Below, piece by piece: positions 1 to 10,720 of a DNA stretch of 10,720 bases. The stretch is taken from assembly GCA_003345595.1 (NCBI GenBank), contig PRDI01000113.1, positions 1 through 10,720 on the forward strand, in the 5' to 3' direction. Below the pieces are notes generated by a model. The model searched no databases, had not been told where the DNA came from, and saw nothing but the letters and a program-made list of their open reading frames with translations. The stretch is from Candidatus Thorarchaeota archaeon (GTDB lineage Archaea > Asgardarchaeota > Thorarchaeia > Thorarchaeales > Thorarchaeaceae). A program made the position numbers and the translations under genes. Numbering within the stretch: position 1 is the first letter of the stretch; each line of letters begins with the position of its first letter.

Positions 1-1109
1 TCAACGCAAGAGGGACATGCCGAGATGACCCACTGGGCTTGTGTCTGCTCGATGTCTTTGAGCTTGAGCTTGTTTATGTTGAGAGCGAATTCGTTGTCAA
101 AGGCTCTAAGAACTCCACCTGAACCGCAACAGAAGCAGTTGTTCCTGTTATGGGGCAGCTCCTCGAGCGTCACTCCGGGCAGGTTCTCAAGCACCTTTCT
201 AGGTTCCTCGAAGAACCCCTCGTTTCGGCCAGCGTCACAGGGATCGTGAAACGTGACCGTAATGTCGAGTGGAGTCTGCAGGTTGTTCAGTTTACCACTG
301 TCACACAAACGAGCGAGGTAGGCTGCGCCATACTCCACTTCGAACGGATGCTCAATGTCAAGCAACTCATGGTACTCATGAGCCCACATCCTGTAGCAGC
401 CTGGACAGTTGGTTATCACTCGCTCCACCCCAAGCTGCTTGTACATCTCTATATTGTGCTCTGCCAGAGTCTTTGCAGTAGCGAAGTCACCGGTCATGAT
501 CATTGGAGCGCCACAGCACCACTCGTCTTGTCCAAGTACGGTGTACTCCTCACCGATTCTGTCCATCACAAGTGTCGTCGCAATTGTCGCTTGGATTGGG
601 ACTGCCTTGTAGGACGAAGAACATCCGAAGAAGAATGCTGTCTTTGCCTTTCGACCCACACTCCTTTGAAGAGAGTCCTCATCTGGGTGCCAGTATGACC
701 AGCCGTCTATTCTGTCGGTCTGCGCTTGGCCTTGGATATTGCTGGTCTTCAGCAGTGTGTCCCTTGCGGCCTCGAGGTTCTTGGGCCATAGCCCTCTTCT
801 GTAGAACTCCGCGCGCATCAGCTGGTACAGCTTGACAAACGGTATGTCCACTTGACAGACCTCTTCACAGCCACCGCACAGTGTACAGCCAAAGATACCG
901 TCCCTGAGTCCTTCGAGACCTTCAGAGGGCTTGAGTCGCCCCTGCATCAATGCCCGGGCTATGATCATCTTGCCCTTCCCAGAATAGCTGTCGAGGCGCT
1001 TCACCTTGTAGGTGGGACACGATCCATGCCCGACCTGACAGAAGCTGCACTGCGCACAGGTGAAGGGCATATTCTGGAGTCCATGTTTTTCAAGTAGAGG
1101 GAATCGCAT
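1..1109 (-). CDS. HdrD/GlcF-like Fe-S oxidoreductase (2x[4Fe-4S] ferredoxin domain + two CCG domains), 3' end truncated by window edge
   Basis: Manual translation of the reverse strand from ATG at 1109 is open to base 1: MRFPLLEKHGLQNMPFTCAQCSFCQVGHGSCPTY...CTLCGGCEEVCQVDIP...FFFGCSSS-x-EWCCGAP-x-TNCPGC...FHDPCDAGR-x-CFCCGSGG-x-SACPSCV. Both CCG domains fit C-x34/35-CC-x35/36-CxxC. GAGAGG SD-like sequence lies upstream. Absent from the ORF track because there is no stop codon in the window. Confidence 0.93.
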   Translation of the reverse strand, partial: MRFPLLEKHGLQNMPFTCAQCSFCQVGHGSCPTYKVKRLDSYSGKGKMIIARALMQGRLKPSEGLEGLRDGIFGCTLCGGCEEVCQVDIPFVKLYQLMRAEFYRRGLWPKNLEAARDTLLKTSNIQGQAQTDRIDGWSYWHPDEDSLQRSVGRKAKTAFFFGCSSSYKAVPIQATIATTLVMDRIGEEYTVLGQDEWCCGAPMIMTGDFATAKTLAEHNIEMYKQLGVERVITNCPGCYRMWAHEYHELLDIEHPFEVEYGAAYLARLCDSGKLNNLQTPLDITVTFHDPCDAGRNEGFFEEPRKVLENLPGVTLEELPHNRNNCFCCGSGGVLRAFDNEFALNINKLKLKDIEQTQAQWVISACPSCV

Positions 1110-1328
1110 TACATTCGGACCTCTCTGGTGTCACAAGAATGACTCTTGGGCTGCGATGCCGTCGAACCGTTCAGCGGTCATTCAGCTACAAATACCTTGG
1201 GTCTTGACTCATTGGGGTGTCGGTCGGGCTTCAGGAAGTGCCGCCTCGCTATGTTTTTATCCTGTACTCTTCCTCGGCCCTATCTGCTGGCCTTGGACAC
1301 CATTGCTTGCTCAGTGGAGAATGCCTAG

Positions 1329-3269
1329 ATGACACTGAAAAGCGAGAACGCAGCCGAACTCGCTGGGATCTTCGGCAACCGGCTCATCACTGCCAAACAT
1401 GAGCTGATTGTCCACTCGATGGACGTGGGGTCACTGCCGAAGCAAGTCGGCTGGCTCATGAACACAAACCCTGACGCAATGGTGCAGCCCGAGTCCGCTC
1501 AAGAGGTCAAATTGCTCTACGACTTCGCCCGTTCTCACAAGATTCCCGTCGTTCCTCGAGGGGCAGGGACCTCAGGCTACGGAGGCGCCATACCAAGGAA
1601 AGGCGGTATCGTTGTCGACATGCGCAGGATGGACCAGGTTCTGAGTGTCGACAAGGAATCGATGACTGCCGTGGTAGAGCCGGGCATCTCATGGGCAAAC
1701 CTGCAGTTGGAGCTGAACCGTCAAGGGCTAGATCTGAGATGCTATCCGTCGTCAGCAGTGTCTGCGACTATCGGAGGTTGGGTAGCGCAGGGCGGCGATG
1801 GGATTGGCTCGCTCAAGTATGGCAACATTAACAACAACGTAGTCGAACTCGAAGTTGTTCTGCCCGAAGGAAAGACAATCGTGACCAGAGACACGGACTT
1901 GTTCTGTGACACAGAGGGGATTCTAGGCATAGTCACGAAGGTCACACTCAAGGTCAAACCTCTGGTCCCAATCCGCTCCATTGTTGTGAGCTTCCCCGAG
2001 AACTACCTGATGGTCTTCGCGATTGAGAGGATAATGAAGGACGGACCCCTGCCGTTCACCATGAGATTCGAAGAGAGCAAGTATACAGACCTCAAGAAGA
2101 GGATCTGGGAGGGCAAGGAGCCATTCCCGTTCCCAGTGCATCACTGCGTCCTCTTGGTCGCCTATGAAGGGACAGACGAGGAAATTGCCCAGGGCTTCGA
2201 GATAGTCCGGGAAGTGTGTAAGGAACTGAAGGGGGCTGTTTATGATGAAAATGTCGCGCTCCACGAGTGGGAAGACAGGTTCTATCCCATGAGGATAAAG
2301 AAGATTGGCCCCACACTCGTTGTTGGTCAGGCATTTGCTCCGATAGAGAGCCTAGAAGCCATTCTAGACGATTTTCAGTTCGAACAAGCCTCTGCTCATG
2401 CGGGAATCGACGGTTACGTGACATCGAAGAATGGTGTCACAATGATGGGCTACTTCCTTGAGGACGAGCGGCGGCATTTCTTCATGCTGTCTTGGTCGCA
2501 GAGTTTTGTGATCTTCAAGATTGCACAGCGGCACGGAGGGCACCCTCATTCAACAGGAATCTGGCTGGCGAACTACGCACCGATATACTTCGGCACACGT
2601 CGCCTTGGCAGGATCAGAGCCGCCAAGCTGAAACTGGACCCGCTTGAGATCTCCAACCCGGGCAAGGTGTTTGCATACTGGCTTCCGCTGATTCTCAGAA
2701 TCGGCAAATACTTCATGTGGTTGGGATTCGATCTGTTCCGGAACGGGTTCGGTAGGATTGCGCCCATACTCTTGAAGTGGCTGCAGAACCTCCCGCCGGT
2801 AAAGTGGATTCTTCGTTGGGGTCGTGCGCACAGTCCTTGGCCGGTCCAATACGGTCTTGGGTGTTGCATGGTCGATGGTGCAGCTGCGGTCGCATCTCGT
2901 TGGGACCTTGAGAGGTTCGGCATGCTTCCACTGTTTGGCCCCCGTCAGTGTGATGTGCTGTGGGTATCGGGTTCCCTGACGAAGAAGATGGCTCCTCGTC
3001 TGCGGAGGATCTACGAGCAGATGCCCGACCCCAAGTTCGTCATTTCATTCGGACAGTGTGCTGCAAGCGGAGGTCTCTTCTGGGATGGATACTCACTCGT
3101 GACTCCTCCCGACAAGGTGGTGCCAATCGATGTGTATCTGCCAGGCTGTCCTCCGAAGCCTTCAGACTTCGTTAGGGCACACTTGATTCTTCAGAACAAG
3201 ATTCGTGCAGGGACAACCCACTGGCAGCTGAAACATGAGAATCAAGATGCGATGGGCGTGATAAAGTAG
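1329..3269 (+). CDS. Fusion protein: N-terminal FAD-binding oxidoreductase (GlcD/Dld, VAO/PCMH flavoprotein family) + C-terminal NADH:quinone oxidoreductase subunit B-like (NuoB) domain
   Basis: aa1-446: VPRGAGTSGYGG, VEPGI, TIGGWVAQGG..KYG, TEGILGIVT and the family-terminal NPGK. aa~493-630: WGRAHSPWPVQYGLGCC, DLERFG..GPRQCD, KMAPRLRRIYEQMPDPKFVISFGQCAASGG, DVYLPGCPP (Cys512, 513, 577, 607 = N2 ligand pattern). Single uninterrupted frame; GGAGA lies upstream of the ATG. Confidence 0.93.
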   Translation: MTLKSENAAELAGIFGNRLITAKHELIVHSMDVGSLPKQVGWLMNTNPDAMVQPESAQEVKLLYDFARSHKIPVVPRGAGTSGYGGAIPRKGGIVVDMRRMDQVLSVDKESMTAVVEPGISWANLQLELNRQGLDLRCYPSSAVSATIGGWVAQGGDGIGSLKYGNINNNVVELEVVLPEGKTIVTRDTDLFCDTEGILGIVTKVTLKVKPLVPIRSIVVSFPENYLMVFAIERIMKDGPLPFTMRFEESKYTDLKKRIWEGKEPFPFPVHHCVLLVAYEGTDEEIAQGFEIVREVCKELKGAVYDENVALHEWEDRFYPMRIKKIGPTLVVGQAFAPIESLEAILDDFQFEQASAHAGIDGYVTSKNGVTMMGYFLEDERRHFFMLSWSQSFVIFKIAQRHGGHPHSTGIWLANYAPIYFGTRRLGRIRAAKLKLDPLEISNPGKVFAYWLPLILRIGKYFMWLGFDLFRNGFGRIAPILLKWLQNLPPVKWILRWGRAHSPWPVQYGLGCCMVDGAAAVASRWDLERFGMLPLFGPRQCDVLWVSGSLTKKMAPRLRRIYEQMPDPKFVISFGQCAASGGLFWDGYSLVTPPDKVVPIDVYLPGCPPKPSDFVRAHLILQNKIRAGTTHWQLKHENQDAMGVIK

Positions 3270-3293
3270 CTTCGAATCACAGGAGGTCCATGA

Positions 3294-3758
3294 ATGAGCC
3301 TAAGAGAAGACAGTGACCCATACTGCATGCTTTGGATTGGCGTTGCTCTGTTCGCTGCCTACTATTTCAATTTCGCATATTTAGGGCTCACGGTAACCGG
3401 TTATCTGAGTGCGATTGCCGCATACCTCCCCATTCTGCTAGTGCTGCCGATAGTAATAGTGTTCTTGTTCACTGGCTATTTGAAACCGCGTCGAGGTCGC
3501 TACAGACCAACAGTTCTTGCTTTGTCGATTTTCGCATCACTGTTTTACTTCATCATAGCATCGACCTTGCCGCAGGTAGGTAGTGTGGCACATGATTCAG
3601 TCTTCCTCTCATTCTGGGTGATTGGAGGCGCAATTCTAATCGCAGGCGCTTTTTCCGAAATGCCCTCTCTTGCAGAGAGTACTAGCCCGGGAATGCTGGA
3701 CGTCAGTTCTCTTCAATACAAGACTGACGAAGATGCCACCGCCACTGAAAGCAGCTGA
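3294..3758 (+). CDS. Hypothetical integral membrane protein (about 4 TM helices, acidic C-terminal tail)
   Basis: Four hydrophobic stretches; strong AGGAGG SD at 3281-3286, 7 nt before the ATG; 24 nt after the stop of the fusion gene. Confidence 0.75.
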   Translation: MSLREDSDPYCMLWIGVALFAAYYFNFAYLGLTVTGYLSAIAAYLPILLVLPIVIVFLFTGYLKPRRGRYRPTVLALSIFASLFYFIIASTLPQVGSVAHDSVFLSFWVIGGAILIAGAFSEMPSLAESTSPGMLDVSSLQYKTDEDATATESS

Positions 3759-3872
3759 GTGGACTGATCAGCGCAGAAGCAGCAGACGATGTTTCGACCA
3801 GATGTGCCTGTCGTCGTAATGTTTCTTCACCCGCACAGTTCATCAGAGGACCTCTCATGGAACTCGATGCGA

Positions 3873-3903
3873 GTCAATGATTATTGACCTTCTGGTCAAT
3901 GAT
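3873..3903. promoter_or_regulatory. Candidate transcription-factor operator (alternating GTCAAT/ATTGAC/GTCAAT half-sites) upstream of the ABC operon
   Basis: GTCAAT-gatt-ATTGACC-ttct-GGTCAAT. Two overlapping inverted repeats, and GTCAATGAT is directly repeated 22 nt apart. Followed by AT-rich gaaaggataataaac (BRE/TATA-like). Confidence 0.5.
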
Positions 3904-3985
3904 GAAAGGATAATAAACGCTCGTTCCCTATAGGAGCTCGTGTTGGTTAGCTCGACATCCAATCTTGGCACGATGAGGAACTACG

Positions 3986-4780
3986 ATGGAGTGGAAGCCG
4001 ATGGCGTCTGTTAGTATCAAGCATCTTGTGAAGAGTTACGGCAGCTTCGTTGCTGTGAATGATTTGTCATTTGACGTACGGGAGGGTGAAGTCTATGGAC
4101 TCCTTGGACCCAATGGTGCTGGCAAATCGACGACCCTGAAGGTCCTGATGGGCCTGCTGGATCCAGACTCGGGGACTTCCACCGTCTTCGGCATGGACTC
4201 TGGCGCGAGTCCTGTCGAGGTGAAGAAAAGAGTCGGCTATGTCCCTGAGGAAATCTCACTTTACGAGTCGCTCACGGCGAGAGAGCTCATTGACTTTGTC
4301 GCTTCCATAAGAGGGCTCAGCCCGGAAACTGCAGCAAGGCGTGCGTCCGAAATGTCCAAGGCACTGGACTTCGTCCAACAGTATGACAAGACCGTTGTGA
4401 CTCTCTCACATGGGAACAAGCAGAAACTGATGTTGATCATAGCCATGCTTCATGCCCCAGACTTGCTCATACTTGACGAGCCTTTCACCGGACTTGACGT
4501 CCGGACTGCTCGGATTATGAAGGATGTCATCAAGATCCATGTGGAAGGAGGCGGTTCTGCACTACTCAGTACGCACATAATGGAGATGGCTGAGGGACTG
4601 TGCAATAGGGTAGGAATCATCGATCATGGAGTCATGGTCGCTGAGGGCACGCTGGACGAGCTGGGCAGGCAGGCGCAGATTGAGGGCGCCACACTTGAGA
4701 AACTGTTCCTCAAACTCACTGGAGCGGAGGGAGAGGTAGAAGAGGGCGTGGAAACTCTCCGGGAGGCTTTGGGTGATTGA
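3986..4780 (+). CDS. ABC transporter ATP-binding protein (ABC-2/CcmA-like exporter ATPase); true start may be ATG 4001
   Basis: Walker A GPNGAGKST, Q-loop region GYVPE, signature LSHGNKQK, Walker B LLILDEP, H-loop STH, C-terminal TLEKLFLKLT. Confidence 0.95.
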   Translation: MEWKPMASVSIKHLVKSYGSFVAVNDLSFDVREGEVYGLLGPNGAGKSTTLKVLMGLLDPDSGTSTVFGMDSGASPVEVKKRVGYVPEEISLYESLTARELIDFVASIRGLSPETAARRASEMSKALDFVQQYDKTVVTLSHGNKQKLMLIIAMLHAPDLLILDEPFTGLDVRTARIMKDVIKIHVEGGGSALLSTHIMEMAEGLCNRVGIIDHGVMVAEGTLDELGRQAQIEGATLEKLFLKLTGAEGEVEEGVETLREALGD

Positions 4781-6420
4781 ATCTCGGTAAGAAGTGGCAG
4801 ATAGCTGGAGCCGTTTCAACGGAGTTGCGGTTTCAGGGCTACCTTGACTCCAACCCAATGGGACTCTCTCGCATCAAAGAGAACCCAGAGCGGATTATGA
4901 GGCAGATGAAGAGTGCAAATACGATGAGCGGACTGGTTTCAGCACTGTTCATTTCGACCCTGGGAATCTCGTCTATTGCGGCGGCTTACATCAACCTAGG
5001 CAGTGGACCATTCCACCTTCGTATGGCTCTATCCATTTCCATGTTCCTTGGTCTTACATTCATACTTATGTTCTTCATGAACCTCATGGCGACGACAGGA
5101 TTCTTCGGTGCGAGTGCCATGCGCCTCTTGACCATCCTGCCTTTCTCACGAAGCGACCTCGAAAACATCATCCTTCTGGCATTTGGCAGAGTCTTCATTG
5201 CTCCGGCTGTGATAATCAATGTGGTCTTCCCTCTCATCTGCTTCGTGCTGTTGGGACCGCTTATTGGTCTAGTTGCACTAGCGGGTTGTCTGATGACCAC
5301 GTCATTGTCCATTGGAGCACTGGTCAAGGTTTCCAAGTGGTTCTACGTGAAATCACATTCCTCAACTAATTCCAAAGCATCAACCATCATCCGTATCGCG
5401 GCAGGACTGGGAATTGTCGTTGGAATGTTCGCTGCCTATAGTATGACGGGATTCATACCGACGATCGTGCAGTTACTAGTGCAGCTGTCATCGAGCTTCG
5501 GTGAGATTGCAGTATCGATGCTTGCTGTTGTGTTTCCCTTCAGTCTTGGCATCCTCGCCGCCGCGCTCATCCCAGAAACGAGCTTTTCGTCAGTGACAGT
5601 CGCGGTTGCGGCCATCTCTTCGATGATTTATGCAGCTCTCGCGTATATTACCTACTTACGTAGTGGAAAGGCACTCAGATCAGTGGCCCTTGGAGGAGTC
5701 ACAACAAGTGGCGCCGAGATTCGACGCGACATAAGCGTTGACATTCTCAGCCCTATAAGTGCGATAATCCGGAAGGACATGAAGCTGGCTACACGTAACC
5801 TCGGGTCAATAATGATCATCGTGATGCCGCTCTTGATGGTCTTCTCAGTCTATCCTATTGTGGCTTTCACCAGTGAGGGGTTTCTGAGGAGTTCTTCAGC
5901 ACTACTTGGAACAGGATACATAACTACTTTCACGGGAATCTCTCTCATCGGGCTCTTGTCACTAGACTCTCAGGGCGCCTCCCTCCACGAGGGGCTTCCT
6001 ATAGACAGCAGAATGATACTGAGTGCAAAGGTCAGGGTGTTTGCTGTGCAGTATGCATTGGCCATGAGTGTGCTTGTGATTTGGTTTGCGCTTGCCAGCC
6101 CCATAACACTGCTTCTAGTTCTGCTGCCAATCATCCAGTTCCCCACGGCATATGCCATCGGATACCTGGTTGCCGCAACGATATATCACATCAGAGGGGG
6201 TGGCCGAGTCACCGCTGTCAACATCATAGGCGACCAAGCTATCGTTCTCCTCTCAATGGCTCTGACTGCGGCAATAGCTGGCGCTCCACTGGGAGCATAT
6301 GCACTGATTCTTCTGGCAACAAGAGGAAATCATCTCATGGCGCTTGGTATGCAGCTTGCGGTTGTCCTGCTCGAATTCCTGTTTGCGCGGCAGATTACTC
6401 CTAGGTTGCTTAAGGGTTAA
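4777..6420 (+). CDS. ABC exporter permease (multi-pass membrane protein)
   Basis: TTG start overlaps the ATPase stop (TTGA). More than 10 hydrophobic segments in two halves, each with an LP motif (LLTILPFSR; LHEGLPIDSR), and IIRKDMKLATRN at the start of the second half, typical of ABC-2-associated permeases. Confidence 0.85.
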   Translation: MNLGKKWQIAGAVSTELRFQGYLDSNPMGLSRIKENPERIMRQMKSANTMSGLVSALFISTLGISSIAAAYINLGSGPFHLRMALSISMFLGLTFILMFFMNLMATTGFFGASAMRLLTILPFSRSDLENIILLAFGRVFIAPAVIINVVFPLICFVLLGPLIGLVALAGCLMTTSLSIGALVKVSKWFYVKSHSSTNSKASTIIRIAAGLGIVVGMFAAYSMTGFIPTIVQLLVQLSSSFGEIAVSMLAVVFPFSLGILAAALIPETSFSSVTVAVAAISSMIYAALAYITYLRSGKALRSVALGGVTTSGAEIRRDISVDILSPISAIIRKDMKLATRNLGSIMIIVMPLLMVFSVYPIVAFTSEGFLRSSSALLGTGYITTFTGISLIGLLSLDSQGASLHEGLPIDSRMILSAKVRVFAVQYALAMSVLVIWFALASPITLLLVLLPIIQFPTAYAIGYLVAATIYHIRGGGRVTAVNIIGDQAIVLLSMALTAAIAGAPLGAYALILLATRGNHLMALGMQLAVVLLEFLFARQITPRLLKG

Positions 6421-6507
6421 TCGTGGGAAAGCAGACCCGCACGACCGCAACCCAGCATTAGGACGGGTTCAGCAACTCCTTCTCTGATCCGGAAAACAAG
6501 TGGCTAT

Positions 6508-6858
6508 CTATGGCTCCAAAAGCCACCCGACCGACGCCGTCACTAGGAGAACTGCGAAGGCGATCCAGAGGAAGGCGATGCCGCCAAGATAGCCTGGAAA
6601 CAGGCTGACGTCCAGATAGCCCTGAATTCCTCCAAGTATGGCTGAAATGAATGTGAGCGCCATGCGCCTCGGACGGGTTCTTGCGTATGCCACGGCGGCC
6701 GTCGCCAGTACGAAGAGAATGCAGTCCACGAGAAGAAGTGGGCGGAGAAATGGCTCTGCGACTGGACTCATCGTCCACAGCACGTAGACCAGAATAAGGC
6801 CAAGTCCGATAGCTAGGACAGAGTAGTAGACCAGCACGATCTTTGTCTTGGGGGCCAA
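6508..6858 (-). CDS. Hypothetical small membrane protein (about 4 TM)
   Basis: ORF track gives 6508-6897. The likelier start is TTG at 6858, with an AGGTGA SD 5 nt upstream. Four hydrophobic segments separated by short basic loops (RTRPRR). Confidence 0.7.
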   Translation of the reverse strand: MAPKTKIVLVYYSVLAIGLGLILVYVLWTMSPVAEPFLRPLLLVDCILFVLATAAVAYARTRPRRMALTFISAILGGIQGYLDVSLFPGYLGGIAFLWIAFAVLLVTASVGWLLEP

Positions 6859-6910
6859 GCGAATCACCTGAGGTCTGGCTTCAGATATCCGAGACAAGCC
6901 GTCGTGGTAC

Positions 6911-6928
6911 TGTATTTAACTGCTTTGA
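6911..6928 (-). promoter_or_regulatory. Possible archaeal BRE/TATA for the minus-strand membrane protein gene
   Basis: Minus strand reads tcaaagcaGTTAAATAca, about 55 nt upstream of the TTG start. Confidence 0.3.
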
Positions 6929-7073
6929 GGAGTGGGCGTCGAAGTGTTTTTATCACCCAACGAGCCGGCTGACGGTCTATCCACGAAGTGCGCCTTCTTC
7001 TGTCAGCACGATGTGCAGAAACGGTGTCGGCGCCTATCCCAAGCCTCAAAGTATTGATGGATGGTACTCCTCG

Positions 7074-7514
7074 ATGAGGTTGTTCATTGACTTCGTCCCT
7101 GTGTTGGTGTGGGCCCTCCTCGCCATTGCACTCGTTGCCATAATGCTCTTGGCATCGTGGGTGTTGCGGCCTCACATCCTTCAGAACTCGGACAAGACCT
7201 CCTCATACGAGTGCGGAGAGGAGCCGGTGGGCACTGCCGCCGTTGCATTTCCGTACAGCTACTTCCTCTATACAGTCCTGTTTGTCATCGTCGACGTAAT
7301 GGGTGCATTTCTTTGGCTATTGTCAGTATCTCCGCTCAGGATTTCTGAAGTTATCGTCTGGCAGACATTTGTCTTCGTGGTGCTCATAGTCCTCGGGATT
7401 GCGTTTGCCCTACACATGCTGCCTCAGACGTTGCTCGACGGAAAAGAAACCCTCAGACTGTACCGTGAGAGCAAAGCGGCCCGTGAACAGCACGATTCGG
7501 GGGTGCAGGTGTGA
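7074..7514 (+). CDS. nuoA: NADH:quinone oxidoreductase subunit A-like
   Basis: Three TM helices, loop KTSSYECGEEPVG, YFLYTVLFVIVDV. Start set at ATG 7074 (TTG 7080 also possible). The 6843 start in the ORF track overlaps the divergent gene and promoter. Confidence 0.9.
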   Translation: MRLFIDFVPVLVWALLAIALVAIMLLASWVLRPHILQNSDKTSSYECGEEPVGTAAVAFPYSYFLYTVLFVIVDVMGAFLWLLSVSPLRISEVIVWQTFVFVVLIVLGIAFALHMLPQTLLDGKETLRLYRESKAAREQHDSGVQV

Positions 7515-8170
7515 TGTTGATGCAGGAATTCGAGGCACTGTTTGAAGAGGTCGAGTTCGTTGTGATTGCAGTCGTCGTGCTGCTGCTAGCATATCTTGCA
7601 CTCGAGCACAGAGAGATCGTCTACTCCGTTTTCTTCTTTGGATTCATGGCCGCTAGTGTAGCGGGCTTCTACCTTCTCTTGGAAGCACCTTTCATCGCCG
7701 GTATGCAGATTGCAGTGTACACCGGCGGAATAAGCGCTCTGATCATCTTCGGTGTTCTTCTTCTGCCGCGGGCGCAGGGCTCTTCATTAGAGGTACTACA
7801 GACCCCGCGAATGCGAAGGATAGGCATGATTCTCTCCGCGACTGTCATGACACTCTCAGCAGTCCTCGCTCTGGTTTTTCCTTGGTCTCAGTCCTTTCCG
7901 GCTGACCGTCCGCCTATCGCTCAAGACCTTGCAGGTCTGGCAGCTTGGCTCTGGGGAGAGCATGGGATCTATGTCCAGCTTGTTGCGCTCATGATGCTGA
8001 CTGCCGTCATCGGGTCTGTCGCAATCCTGAAGATGGAGAAGACAGAGAAGCTCAGTCCTCTGAAGGACCGACCCGGACTCGGGTCGCGGGGCAAGGAGAA
8101 CGAAGGCGCTTCCGAAACTAAGGCCCATGATGAGGAGCACCAAGATGCCAAGGAGGCCGGCACCCAATGA
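7511..8170 (+). CDS. nuoJ: NADH:quinone oxidoreductase subunit J-like
   Basis: IVYSVFF..AGFYLLLEAPFIAGMQIAVYTGGISALIIFGVLL signature, five TM helices, GTGA overlap with nuoA. Confidence 0.92.
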   Translation: MMLMQEFEALFEEVEFVVIAVVVLLLAYLALEHREIVYSVFFFGFMAASVAGFYLLLEAPFIAGMQIAVYTGGISALIIFGVLLLPRAQGSSLEVLQTPRMRRIGMILSATVMTLSAVLALVFPWSQSFPADRPPIAQDLAGLAAWLWGEHGIYVQLVALMMLTAVIGSVAILKMEKTEKLSPLKDRPGLGSRGKENEGASETKAHDEEHQDAKEAGTQ

Positions 8171-8487
8171 TACCATTGAGCTGGTACTTGGTCGTGGCCT
8201 TCGTGATGATAGGGCTGGGCGCCTACGGTATGGTGACGAAGAGAAACCTGATTCGAATTCTCATCGGTGCGGAGATAATGGGCAATGGCGTTAACATAGC
8301 GCTGGTCGCCTTCTCGCTTTACAATCCGGTCTTCTCATTCACTGGTCAGGGACTGATTATCCTCGTGATATCAGTGACTGCGGCACATACTGCATTGGCG
8401 TTGGTGTTGATGCTCATGTATCAGACCCGGTACTCGACCGTGGACCTCGGCGAGCCTGTCACTGTGGAGGCACGGAAGAGTGACTGA
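8167..8487 (+). CDS. nuoK: NADH:quinone oxidoreductase subunit K-like
   Basis: GLGAYGMVTKRNLIRILIGAEIMGNGVNIALVAF, GQ motif, three TM helices, ATGA overlap with nuoJ. Confidence 0.92.
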   Translation: MIPLSWYLVVAFVMIGLGAYGMVTKRNLIRILIGAEIMGNGVNIALVAFSLYNPVFSFTGQGLIILVISVTAAHTALALVLMLMYQTRYSTVDLGEPVTVEARKSD

Positions 8488-9019
8488 GCCAACGACAGTC
8501 CCTCAAGGGATGTCCCCGTCAACACTGGCAAAGCACGTGATTGACAGGCACCCGGACGTTTCTGCGAAGGAGCCAGAAGGGAACCGGATTGAGCTGATTG
8601 TGCCGGCTGAGAGGGTTCGTGATGTTGTTGGAATGATAAGCGAGCTTGTGCCCGACGCTCTTCCAGAGTCTCTGTTTGGCGTAGATCTCGGCAATGACCG
8701 ATACGAGGTGATGTACTTCTTCTGGTCACACTCGAACTTGATGTTGTGTCAGCTGCGTGTCACACTTGAGGGCGCCAGTCCAGAGGTTGACTCTGTCTGG
8801 GACATTTTCCCGGGGATGGAGTGGCACGAACGAGAGACCCATGAGATGTTCGGAATCGGGTTCAAGGGTAATCCCGACCTAAGACTGCTCCTGCTTCCCG
8901 ATGAGCTTGACGGCAAGTATCCGCTCAGGAAGAGCTTCAAGACCGACAGGAGTCGACTTGCTGAGTCAGGACTGGCAGAGACCAGACCTACCTCAAAGGA
9001 GAGTGAGACCTCAGGTTGA
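8480..9019 (+). CDS. nuoC: NADH:quinone oxidoreductase subunit C-like
   Basis: GVD..RYEVMY, VDSVWDIFPGMEWHERETHEMFGIGFKGNPDLRLLLLP..GKYPLRKSF signature; GTG start overlaps nuoK by 8 nt. Confidence 0.93.
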   Translation: MTEPTTVPQGMSPSTLAKHVIDRHPDVSAKEPEGNRIELIVPAERVRDVVGMISELVPDALPESLFGVDLGNDRYEVMYFFWSHSNLMLCQLRVTLEGASPEVDSVWDIFPGMEWHERETHEMFGIGFKGNPDLRLLLLPDELDGKYPLRKSFKTDRSRLAESGLAETRPTSKESETSG

Positions 9020-10152
9020 GTGGCAACATTCTCGACGAGGCTGTGGAGGTATGGTTCGGTCCTCAGCACGTTTCAGCTCACGGGTGGGCCACAAAGCTGA
9101 CCATCGTTGGTGACTTCATCGTTGAATGTGACCCTAACGCAGGCTACTTCCATCGGTCAGCAGAGAAGTGTCTTGAGTTCCGCGACTTCCGTCAAGGTGC
9201 GCTCATCATGGAAAGGCTCTGCATGCTTGAAGCATTCCTCGCGGAGTACCCTTACGTGAAGGCGGTTGAGAAGATCGCTGCGCTGGAGGTACCCGAGAGG
9301 GCCAAGGTCATGAGGACAATCATGATGGAGGCCAGCAGGATTCATAGCCTTCAGTTCTGGTGGGGACAATTCGCGGCGGAGCTTGGTCTTTTCGCAATGC
9401 TGCTATGGCCTTGGGTGGACCGTGAGTACTTCCTAGACTCCTTTGAGGAACTGACTGGCTCCAGACATGCTGTGTCGTACAACACCCCGGGAGGAGTCAA
9501 GTATGATTTCACCGAAAAGTCGGTGAAGATGCTCCTGCGTGCACTGGACAGAATCGAGTATCGAATACCTACGTTCCGTGACATGATTTTGAAAAGCCCG
9601 ACTTTCAAGTTGCGGACGAGGAACGTGGGTACATTCACTGCCGAGCAGGGACTGAAATGGGGTCTAAGCGGACCAAACATCAAAGCATGCGGCATTCCTA
9701 TGGACCTTCGCAAGGACGACCCTGACCCCGACCTTGCATACAACATGTGTGACTGGGAGGTCCCGACCACTCAGAGTGAGGAACATCCTGGGGGAAGTGA
9801 TGCCTACGACAGGATGGTCCAGAGATTCAGGGAGATTGAAACATCAATCAGCATTATCAGGCAACTGCTCCCTCAGGTGCCTGAAGGGCCAATAGTCGAT
9901 CCCAAGGCAAGGGCCAAGACCAACAGACTCCCGGCAGGAGAGGCGTATGGCCGCGTCGAGGGCACACGTGGGATAACGACACTCTGGCTGAAGACTGCGG
10001 ACAAGGCACAGACTCCCTATCGAGCCAAGATAAGGGGACCATGCTTCTCCTCATACTATTCTCTCAAGCATCTTGTTCCGGGCTCCACATTTGCAGACTT
10101 CATTGTGATATTCGGAAGCTTGGATCCATATCCTGGGTGGTGGGACAGATGA
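9016..10152 (+). CDS. nuoD: NADH:quinone oxidoreductase subunit D-like / MBS(MbxL)-like large subunit without NiFe site
   Basis: FGPQHVSAHG, GYFHRSAEK, EVPERAK..RTIMMEASRI, FEELTGSR...PGGV, GEAYGRVEGTRG, PYRAKIRGP, terminal SLDPYPGWWDR. No CxxC pairs. TTGA overlap with nuoC. Confidence 0.92.
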   Translation: MSGNILDEAVEVWFGPQHVSAHGWATKLTIVGDFIVECDPNAGYFHRSAEKCLEFRDFRQGALIMERLCMLEAFLAEYPYVKAVEKIAALEVPERAKVMRTIMMEASRIHSLQFWWGQFAAELGLFAMLLWPWVDREYFLDSFEELTGSRHAVSYNTPGGVKYDFTEKSVKMLLRALDRIEYRIPTFRDMILKSPTFKLRTRNVGTFTAEQGLKWGLSGPNIKACGIPMDLRKDDPDPDLAYNMCDWEVPTTQSEEHPGGSDAYDRMVQRFREIETSISIIRQLLPQVPEGPIVDPKARAKTNRLPAGEAYGRVEGTRGITTLWLKTADKAQTPYRAKIRGPCFSSYYSLKHLVPGSTFADFIVIFGSLDPYPGWWDR

Positions 10153-10720
10153 TGGGAGGCGGCATCTTGCTCCAGATCGACTTCATTGCATGGCTCAGGG
10201 GGATACCGGATTGGCTGTATGGTGTGATCAGATGGATCTATGGAATCATCTACGCCCTGTTTACTTGGGTATGGGGCCTGTTCGTCTGGATCTGGGCAGT
10301 CGTCATAGACAGCTTTTGGTTCCTGTTCAAGGCAATCCTGTTTCCCGGCCTGATCTTTGTGGTGTTGGGAATCATATTCGCAGTCTGGTTCACTCGAAAG
10401 ACATGGGGACGCGTACAGGCAAGGCGTGGACCGTTCCACATAGGAAAGTACGGAGGCCTTCAGCTCTTCGCGGATGCAATCAAGCTTGTAGCGAAGGAAA
10501 CGATAATTCCCGACAAGGCTAAGCGGTGGATGTACAGGGTGCTTCCGTCCCTTCTCCTCATTGCGGTTCTGATCCCATTTGCGTTCATACCTTGGGACAA
10601 CAACTCGTTCATTGCCGACCTGTCTGTGAGCCTTGTGCTGACCTTTGCATTCCTCACAGTCGTGCCTGTGGTTTCAGTGCTGGCAGGTTGGACCAGTGGA
10701 TCGAAGTACACTCTCATTGG
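10149..10720 (+). CDS. nuoH: NADH:quinone oxidoreductase subunit H-like, truncated by window edge
   Basis: Manual translation is open to the end: ...FPGLIF..VWFTRKTWGRVQARRGPFHIGKYGGLQLFADAIKLVAKETIIP..FAFIPW..ADLSVS..LAGWTSGSKYTLIG. Start is ATG 10149 (ATGA overlap) or TTG 10167 (GGAGG at 10155-10159). Not in the ORF track. Confidence 0.93.
   Translation, partial: MMGGGILLQIDFIAWLRGIPDWLYGVIRWIYGIIYALFTWVWGLFVWIWAVVIDSFWFLFKAILFPGLIFVVLGIIFAVWFTRKTWGRVQARRGPFHIGKYGGLQLFADAIKLVAKETIIPDKAKRWMYRVLPSLLLIAVLIPFAFIPWDNNSFIADLSVSLVLTFAFLTVVPVVSVLAGWTSGSKYTLI
10191..10307 (+). repeat. Degenerate 7-aa (21-nt) Trp repeat in the NuoH N-terminal extension
   Basis: WLRGIPD / WLYGVIR / WIYGIIY / (ALFT) / WVWGLFV / WIWAVVI. 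Confidence 0.6.

Follow-up and report, generated by a model that had tools for sequence, protein, structure and literature searches.

A flavoprotein fused to the NuoB subunit of a complex I relative, with a predicted HdrD-like iron–sulfur partner, in one family of Thorarchaeia

The window analyzed here, a stretch of 10,720 bases, is the complete contig C113 of the Thorarchaeota metagenome-assembled genome (MAG) G000 (2.73 Mb, 83% complete). It encodes a 646-aa protein in which a flavin adenine dinucleotide (FAD) domain is fused to NuoB, the N2-cluster subunit of complex I. The gene of an HdrD-like iron–sulfur protein with two CCG domains (the CCG protein) diverges from the fusion gene, and a nuo operon starts 3.8 kb downstream. 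Annotation of the window by gene calls and by Pfam and NCBIfam profile searches recovers all that an earlier sequence-only reading of the contig had described, namely the divergent HdrD/GlcF-like gene, the FAD-NuoB fusion and nuoA-J-K-C-D-H at that distance. That reading also took the parts to belong together, and this is borne out by the fusion being the sole NuoB of the genome, by a gene order conserved over 12 genera, by the co-occurrence of fusion and pump and by a predicted interface between the FAD domain and the CCG protein. We propose that they form one membrane redox machine specific to one Thorarchaeia family, in which pump and flavoenzyme communicate through a lipophilic carrier, and we give this proposal an even chance.

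The fusion gene (1329..3269, plus strand) is one continuous frame from residue 1 to residue 646. The FAD domain (residues 1-447, 1329..2669) has the D-lactate dehydrogenase (D-LDH)/GlcD fold of the VAO/PCMH family, the linker (residues 448-490, 2670..2798) is conserved, hydrophobic and amphipathic, and the NuoB domain (residues 491-646, 2799..3269) carries the four N2-cluster cysteines. Profile matches are FAD_binding_4 (3.3e-41), FAD-oxidase_C (9.8e-12) and Oxidored_q6/NuoB (7e-24). The NuoB part scores 180.5 bits with the NCBIfam NuoB model NF005012 (cut-off 116) and matches Thermus thermophilus Nqo6 at 1.1e-42 in phmmer. Its motifs GLGCCMVD, GQCAASGG and LPGCPPKP align to the N2 cysteine motifs of Nqo6, with the tandem CC included. 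It reaches 149 bits with Nqo6, 108 with MbsJ and 97 with MbhJ; judged by sequence it is clearly of the complex I type, and the label 'MBS-like' given earlier to the ion pump fits it poorly. The continuous frame is found in about 55 genomes and in about 45 protein clusters. In genome G333 the gene reads as two frames. A naturally split fusion is rejected here and indel errors are the probable cause, since nuoD on the same contig is split likewise.

Three other Oxidored_q6 genes are present in G000, on contigs C117, C16 and C125. Each directly precedes the gene of a NiFe hydrogenase large subunit, and for this reason we assign all three as group 3 hydrogenase small subunits and reject them as a second NuoB. 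The copy on C16 (L003:1465-2379) contains one in-frame TAG, giving pieces of 149 and 154 aa, which may reflect an error in sequencing, a pseudogenized copy or recoding of the stop codon. The genome also contains a single NuoH. The fusion is the only NuoB of G000, and the downstream nuo operon, followed onto contig C93 and through the loci of relatives, is without nuoB, as had been noted for the window. The absence of nuoEFG and fpoF noted there extends beyond it as well. NuoF (Complex1_51K) is absent from G000 and from three of four relatives examined with it, and is in no nuo locus; the one FrhB-family gene is unlinked to the nuo operon and is missing from G335. NuoEFG and FpoF are rejected as partners of the pump on these grounds.

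Distribution was surveyed in 400 Asgard genomes, and synteny in regions of 20 kb surrounding the fusion, taken from 21 genomes of 12 genera. All the genomes with the full-length fusion belong to genera g1-g12 of the window's own family. No fused form occurs outside the family in the 400 genomes, and none below 72% identity was found among 5.8 billion proteins. The conserved order across the 12 genera is the CCG gene on the reverse strand, the fusion and a small gene (U154) on the forward strand, a second small gene (U116) on the reverse strand, and the forward operon nuoAJKCDHI, antiporter-like gene, nuoL, nuoM, nuoN. In 19 of the 21 loci this nuo operon, with its extra antiporter-like gene, comes after the fusion, and in 15 the CCG gene and the fusion stand back-to-back. 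U154 lies directly after the fusion in 20 loci, and in L050 and L061 its start and the stop of the fusion share 4 nt. U116 lies between U154 and nuoA in 20. In the remaining two genomes, G334 (L045) and G317 (L049), the operon is not behind the fusion within the fetched region, which could reflect rearrangement or misassembly. Genera g13-g16 of the same family have neither the fusion nor this NuoD (best match 31-34% identical). The fusion and this nuo complex co-occur, and the linkage proposed from the single contig is thus found again in its relatives.

These observations also bear on the explanation that there is no functional unit at all, the fusion arising from faulty assembly or annotation, or lying by chance beside an unrelated nuo operon. 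Such an explanation could draw on the 3.8 kb and the opposite-strand gene between fusion and nuoA in the window, on the two loci without nuo genes right after the fusion and on the two frames in G333. It is opposed by a single open frame in so many genomes from many samples, by the sole-NuoB status, by the synteny in 19 loci and by the split nuoD of G333, which suggests indel errors there. We regard an artefact as extremely improbable.

The origin of the fusion can be followed in part. In the sister genus g14, where the pump is absent, a MenA-like gene, a CCG gene and an unfused FAD protein gene form a co-oriented operon in that order; the CCG protein is 65-70% and the FAD protein 57% identical to the counterparts described here. 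A quick tree unites the fused FAD domains with support 95 and places the g14 genes next to them as sister with support 100; the data fit one single fusion event. A sister clade of the NuoD (48-52% identity) has the same operon, again with nuoB not in it, and the nearest standalone NuoB genes (63-67% identical) are unfused and lie away from nuo operons, beside hyp genes or beside nuoA and UbiA. From both facts it seems that nuoB departed from the operon before the fusion arose. In L078 and L080 a standalone nuoB, 64-67% identical to the fused domain, adjoins the hydrogenase maturation genes hypC, D, E and F and no other nuo genes. A locus of a different Asgard family, L072 (G003:C175), has two FAD_binding_4/CCG pairs within 5 kb of nuoA-nuoB and nuoJ-nuoK; its NuoB is standalone and 60% identical, and the layout may represent an older association of FAD/CCG modules with nuo genes.

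The AlphaFold2 (AF2) model of the FAD part (residues 1-450) is confident, with predicted local distance difference test (pLDDT) values mostly >85. In Foldseek it matches mouse LDHD (2e-32, target template modelling (TM) score 0.84), and also LctD and alkyl-DHAP synthase. The Pfam matches and the model together place it in the FAD_binding_4 plus FAD-oxidase_C fold of the GlcD/D-LDH family, and the FAD motif RGAGTSGYGG is intact. The residues of HxGDGNxH ... GEHG, which we take to be the His-His-Glu metal site of GlcD/D-LDH enzymes, are changed. The fusion has AHAGIDGYVT and PHSTG in place of the AHAG-DGNLH and GEHG of a D-lactate dehydrogenase (9qgz), so that in this alignment the second His is replaced by Thr and the Glu by Pro. 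The score with the GlcD model TIGR00387 is 144.5 bits, compared with a cut-off of 567.9. The description 'GlcD-like' thus holds for the fold and fails for the metal triad and the family-level score. Because the triad is lost and the score is far below the cut-off, glycolate or lactate is not supported as substrate. The domain is probably active.

The changed metal site could also mean that the FAD domain is not catalytic and serves in anchoring, assembly or sensing, in the manner of the enzyme-derived subunits of mitochondrial complex I. The weak FAD-oxidase_C match (45.5 bits) would agree with such a structural or regulatory accessory. However, the triad loss is common to the whole subfamily, including free-standing Thorarchaeia paralogs that retain CCG partners. 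The fused copies keep the FAD motif and the subfamily invariants W314, R317, K324, D379, K433 and others, identity within the FAD domain is 74% over 12 genera, and none of the cluster cysteines encoded by the partner CCG gene is lost. A purely accessory role is therefore improbable.

The linker is even more conserved than the FAD domain, with a mean identity of 85% compared with 74% among 30 fused orthologs. Residues 448-490 have a mean hydrophobicity of up to ~0.5 and a hydrophobic moment of up to 0.55, and they probably form a helix at the membrane surface. The unfused FAD ortholog of genus g14, 499 aa long, already spans residues 1-495, with the amphipathic tail included. Since the unfused protein already has it, the tail is older than the fusion, and the flavoprotein would have been a membrane-surface enzyme before fusing. 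The AF2 model of the NuoB part is poor (pLDDT 26-49).

The CCG gene (3..1109, minus strand; Pfam CCG 1.5e-33, Fer4_8) loses the last ~39 aa of the C-terminus of its product beyond the contig end. It diverges from the fusion gene across 1110..1328, where both promoters are presumed to lie. The protein consists of an N-terminal 2x[4Fe-4S] domain followed by two complete CCG domains (Pfam CCG in two stretches). Across 21 orthologs and paralogs all 18 cysteines, 8 of ferredoxin type and 2x5 of CCG type, are invariant or almost invariant. Two CX(n)CCGX(n)CxxC domains together with a 2x[4Fe-4S] domain are the HdrD/HdrB-type arrangement. Its best NCBIfam matches are TfrB (160.9 bits), GlpC and LdhH, each below its cut-off; as no equivalog cut-off is reached, a specific enzyme name does not apply. 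At least four further CCG paralogs are encoded in G000. In the complete genome G320 the region upstream of the CCG gene (L011:1-9808) contains two further FAD_binding_4/CCG pairs, an amine-oxidase-like flavoprotein gene and PNPOx/DUF7530 genes, together a cluster of flavin/CCG redox enzymes.

When the FAD part and the CCG protein are predicted together, the complex has a median score of 0.89, while the best of three controls scores 0.01. The mark of 0.89 is reached by 58 of 80 solved complexes and by 2 of 110 mismatched pairs, a calibration that is rough since custom alignments were used. The predicted contacts agree at >=96% across runs, with a partner pLDDT of >=85. Residues 13-88 of the CCG protein, that is the 2x[4Fe-4S] domain, face the flavin domain including the invariant segment 319-330. 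The prediction supports binding of the FAD domain to the 2x[4Fe-4S] domain of the HdrD-like protein.

The operon genes in the window are all on the plus strand. nuoA (7074..7514; Oxidored_q4 2.4e-17) likely starts at ATG 7074 and encodes 146 aa, in a frame open from 6843; its orthologs in related loci have 142-165 aa. It is followed by nuoJ (7511..8170; Oxidored_q3 2.3e-21), nuoK (8167..8487; Oxidored_q2 1.9e-19), nuoC (8480..9019; Complex1_30kDa 1e-26), nuoD (9016..10152; Complex1_49kDa 4e-60) and the 5' part of nuoH (10149..10720; Pfam NADHdh 6.7e-35), which is truncated by the contig end. Contig C93 carries the continuation, with the C-terminus of the extra antiporter-like protein, a 743-aa NuoL and two further antiporter-like genes. 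The antiporter-like genes of G000 are confined to this contig, and their order there is identical to that in relatives. NuoI is unassembled in the MAG and present in 17 related loci and in L011. Window, C93 and relatives combined give the complete 11-subunit core (NuoA, B, C, D, H, I, J, K, L, M, N), and NuoE, F and G of the 14-subunit NADH:quinone oxidoreductase are lacking. There are four antiporter-like subunits, including the extended NuoL (730-797 aa over L044, which is C93 of G000, and L047-L065), and these suggest a high ion-to-electron ratio. The four-subunit arm recurs in a different Asgard family (L073, G101), there with the standard gene order nuoA-B-C-D-H-I-J-K.

In comparison with PDB sequences NuoD scores 189 bits with MbsL, 186 with Nqo4 and 156 with MbhL. 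It contains no NiFe cysteine pair; the N-terminal RLCMLE has one Cys and the C-terminal DPYPGWWDR has none, and the two CxxC pairs of a group 4 [NiFe] hydrogenase large subunit are thus lacking. Motifs of the quinone site were compared in 69 NuoD sequences, with T. thermophilus numbering. The equivalent of His38 is kept (GPQHVSAHG), and the equivalent of Tyr87 is Met in every sequence of the Thorarchaeia clade (ERLCMLEAF, compared with the canonical DRxDY). The same replacement is found in the sister clade, while bacterial NuoD matches have DRxDY. One of the two quinone ligands of complex I is therefore retained. The sequence-only reading had NuoD lacking both the NiFe ligands and the quinone-site residues; the first half stands, and the second has to be narrowed to Tyr87.

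Evidence for a lipophilic carrier comes from the neighborhood of the CCG gene. A gene for a MenA-like prenyltransferase stands beside it in many relatives (L050:18430-19488, L045:7252-8481, L042:7939-9009), scoring 109.9 bits (L050), 128.2 (L045) and 99.4 (the g14 copy) with TIGR00751 (cut-off 102.15). Within the family, 64 of 86 genomes carry it, usually 1-30 kb from the fusion; in G000 it is not assembled. This linkage argues that a lipophilic carrier is still in use. Modules that usually oxidize quinols are rare or absent in five genomes examined: NrfD is found in one, NarI/HdrE and cytochrome bd in none. For this reason the CCG enzymes would be the likely partners of the carrier. A MenA-like gene with no Mqn or Men head-group pathway found in five genomes points to some prenylated compound.

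The machine that we favor has as its core a complex I relative without NuoEFG, with NuoI and four antiporter-like subunits encoded outside the window. The FAD, the two iron–sulfur clusters and the CCG site would form a linear wire, and with it a complete two-site oxidoreductase. The pump would take ferredoxin electrons at NuoI and reduce a prenylated, quinone-like carrier in the altered NuoD/NuoH pocket, and at the foot of the pump the tethered FAD/CCG enzyme would in turn give electrons to this carrier or receive them from it. The enzyme might re-oxidize the carrier with an organic or disulfide acceptor, closing an anaerobic chain, or it might load the carrier for reverse electron flow to ferredoxin driven by the proton motive force. 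The carrier, the ferredoxin partner, the direction and the substrate are those we infer for such a machine. Exchange through a carrier is preferred because the FAD-FeS-FeS-CCG unit is complete by itself in g14, is linked to a MenA-like gene and is joined to the pump through a membrane-surface helix. The four antiporter-like subunits and the 743-aa NuoL would fit a large driving force, for example from ferredoxin to the carrier.

Several points weigh against the carrier. In the five genomes MqnA and MqnD of the naphthoquinone head-group pathway have no match, MenD and MenB have no match over the cut-off, and the searches with MenB gave only matches at the level of enoyl-CoA hydratases; as the known pathway is not found, the carrier is hypothetical. 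The MenA-like gene also occurs in genera without the pump. Canonical quinone chemistry appears doubtful, since Tyr87 of NuoD is Met in every member, and the FAD domain is missing its metal triad.

In a rival scheme the carrier is unneeded, and the FAD/CCG module is itself a part of the pump that acts as terminal donor or acceptor, comparable to NuoEFG or FpoF. Electrons would pass inside the complex between the clusters of the module and N2 or the NuoI chain, for example from ferredoxin through NuoI and N2 to the CCG site, where an organic or disulfide-like acceptor would be reduced, and coupling would take place at the altered NuoD/NuoB/NuoH pocket. The FAD/CCG pair might then be a new head module wired to N2, and the whole a quinone-free, ion-pumping ferredoxin:X oxidoreductase or, driven by the proton motive force, an X:ferredoxin oxidoreductase, where X, perhaps an organic or a disulfide-like compound, would be handled by the CCG or flavin site. 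In favor of such wiring are the covalent attachment to the N2 subunit, the loss of Tyr87 in all members and the sister clade, the failure to find a known head-group pathway and the scarcity of quinol oxidases in five genomes, and both CCG motifs being intact as in HdrB and HdrD. Precedents have been hypothesized for Fpo-like complexes with HdrD and for Fpo-associated HdrD/GlcD (PMC10667645, PMC6783470), and Asgard MBH-like complexes with a peripheral Hdr domain have been reported (10.1101/2024.07.04.601786). However, the g14 module is a free-standing, self-contained FAD-FeS-FeS-CCG enzyme in an operon with a MenA-like gene, and NuoD retains His38. Known complex I structures further suggest that the module, joining NuoB at its N-terminus through a membrane-surface helix, would not be near the input-docking site of NuoI. 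In the predicted interface the iron–sulfur domain of the CCG protein faces the flavin, with no obvious third exit. Direct wiring to N2 is less likely than the carrier route but a serious contender. The earlier proposal of one machine made of pump, flavoprotein and CCG protein is retained; its assignment of the module as terminal donor or acceptor is not established, and the carrier route is favored instead.

The system is relevant to the ways in which Asgard archaea with a fermentative or acetogenic metabolism build up or use ion gradients, and it points to a redox lipid of prenylated type in Thorarchaeia. For biochemistry, the fused form and its unfused counterpart from the sister genus make a tractable pair. 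If the direct wiring to N2 were true, it would be the first physical proof of energy conservation of the hypothesized Fpo-HdrD-GlcD type.

The 3.8 kb between fusion and nuoA hold U154, an ABC transporter pair and, on the opposite strand, U116. U154 (3294..3758, plus strand) encodes a 154-aa and U116 (6508..6897, minus strand) a 129-aa small membrane protein, each with ~4 hydrophobic stretches read by eye. No family match was found for U154 in Pfam, NCBIfam or the ESM Atlas, nor for U116 in profile and ESM Atlas searches. U154 is a candidate extra subunit, given its constant position directly after the fusion. The ABC transporter ATPase (3986..4780, plus strand; ABC_tran 2.2e-30, DrrA-type 232 bits) pairs with a permease-like, multi-pass membrane protein of 547 aa and no known family (4777..6420, plus strand). 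The pair is found only in G000 and its nearest relative G334 among the 21 loci; it is a lineage-specific insert and is rejected as a part of the system.

Relatives of complex I swap their electron-input modules, among them NuoEFG, FpoF, ferredoxin docking and the NiFe site. No solution described so far joins a flavoenzyme of the VAO family to the N2 subunit and gives it an HdrD-like partner. Full-text literature searches found no paper describing a FAD-NuoB fusion. The set NuoA, B, C, D, H, I, J, K, L, M, N and the retained His38 are shared with cyanobacterial NDH-1 (6hum) and with the T. thermophilus complex I core (4hea), and the NuoB part matches both Nqo6 and NdhK at 1e-42 with all N2 cysteines. 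Unlike in those complexes, nuoB lies outside the operon and carries an N-terminal flavoprotein plus linker of 490 aa, Tyr87 is Met, the gene order is A-J-K-C-D-H-I, and there are a fourth antiporter-like subunit and a long NuoL. The '2M' variants of complex I, which are said to have an extra NuoM and a lengthened NuoL, are similar in this last respect to the present system with its four antiporter-like genes and NuoL of 730-797 aa, but they are reportedly bacterial and have a standard NuoB. Ehr complexes are said to combine a NuoD-like subunit that lacks both NiFe and quinone ligands with a reduced membrane arm. Here the NiFe ligands and one of the two quinone ligands are absent; the membrane arm, however, comprises the full set of Nuo subunits, with four that are antiporter-like. 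Pyrococcus furiosus MBS (6u8y) resembles the system in that NuoD is equally near to MbsL and Nqo4 and keeps one old Cys of the NiFe motif (RLCMLE, compared with RICVPE). The NuoB part, however, is nearer to Nqo6, and the membrane arm is of Nuo type (NuoA, J, K, H, NuoL) and not of the Mrp type of MBS and MBH (6u8y, 6cfw).

With respect to the flavoprotein, Fpo/Fqo is likewise an archaeal complex I relative with a dedicated flavoprotein in place of NuoEFG. FpoF is a separate F420/FAD subunit of the FrhB family, whereas the flavoprotein here belongs to the VAO/PCMH family, is fused to NuoB and is partnered by a CCG protein. Passage of electrons from a flavoprotein through a 2x[4Fe-4S] domain to CCG clusters is shared with GlcDEF, YdiJ, GlpABC (GlpC) and TfrAB, and the FAD part of the fusion shows 35-40% identity to YdiJ-like proteins that combine FAD and CCG domains in a single chain. 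Here, however, every score is below the family cut-offs, the metal triad is absent, and the flavoprotein is attached to a complex I subunit, as none of those enzymes is. Among Asgard archaea, MBH-like complexes with a peripheral heterodisulfide-reductase domain are reported in a preprint (10.1101/2024.07.04.601786). Its group 4 hydrogenase tree kept only hydrogenase matches with two CxxC motifs, so that a NuoD of the type described here would fall outside the tree, and the nuo complex of Thorarchaeia is not discussed there. Further likeness is found in the headless Fpo-like complex with HdrD of Methanomassiliicoccales and the Fpo-associated HdrD/GlcD of Methanomethylicia, Bathyarchaeia and Korarchaeia, which are hypotheses from gene content (PMC10667645, PMC6783470). 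Neither these papers nor the preprint mention the fusion. In these systems too a complex I relative without NuoEFG/FpoF, thought to be fed by ferredoxin, goes together with a CCG protein of HdrD type and a flavoprotein of GlcD type. The system of Thorarchaeia differs in that the flavoprotein has no lactate-dehydrogenase metal site and is covalently fused to NuoB, and in that Thorarchaeia have no methyl-CoM reductase context, which makes CoM-S-S-CoB an unlikely substrate. The models for those four lineages rest without physical evidence of the association, and the gene fusion supplies it for an Asgard lineage.

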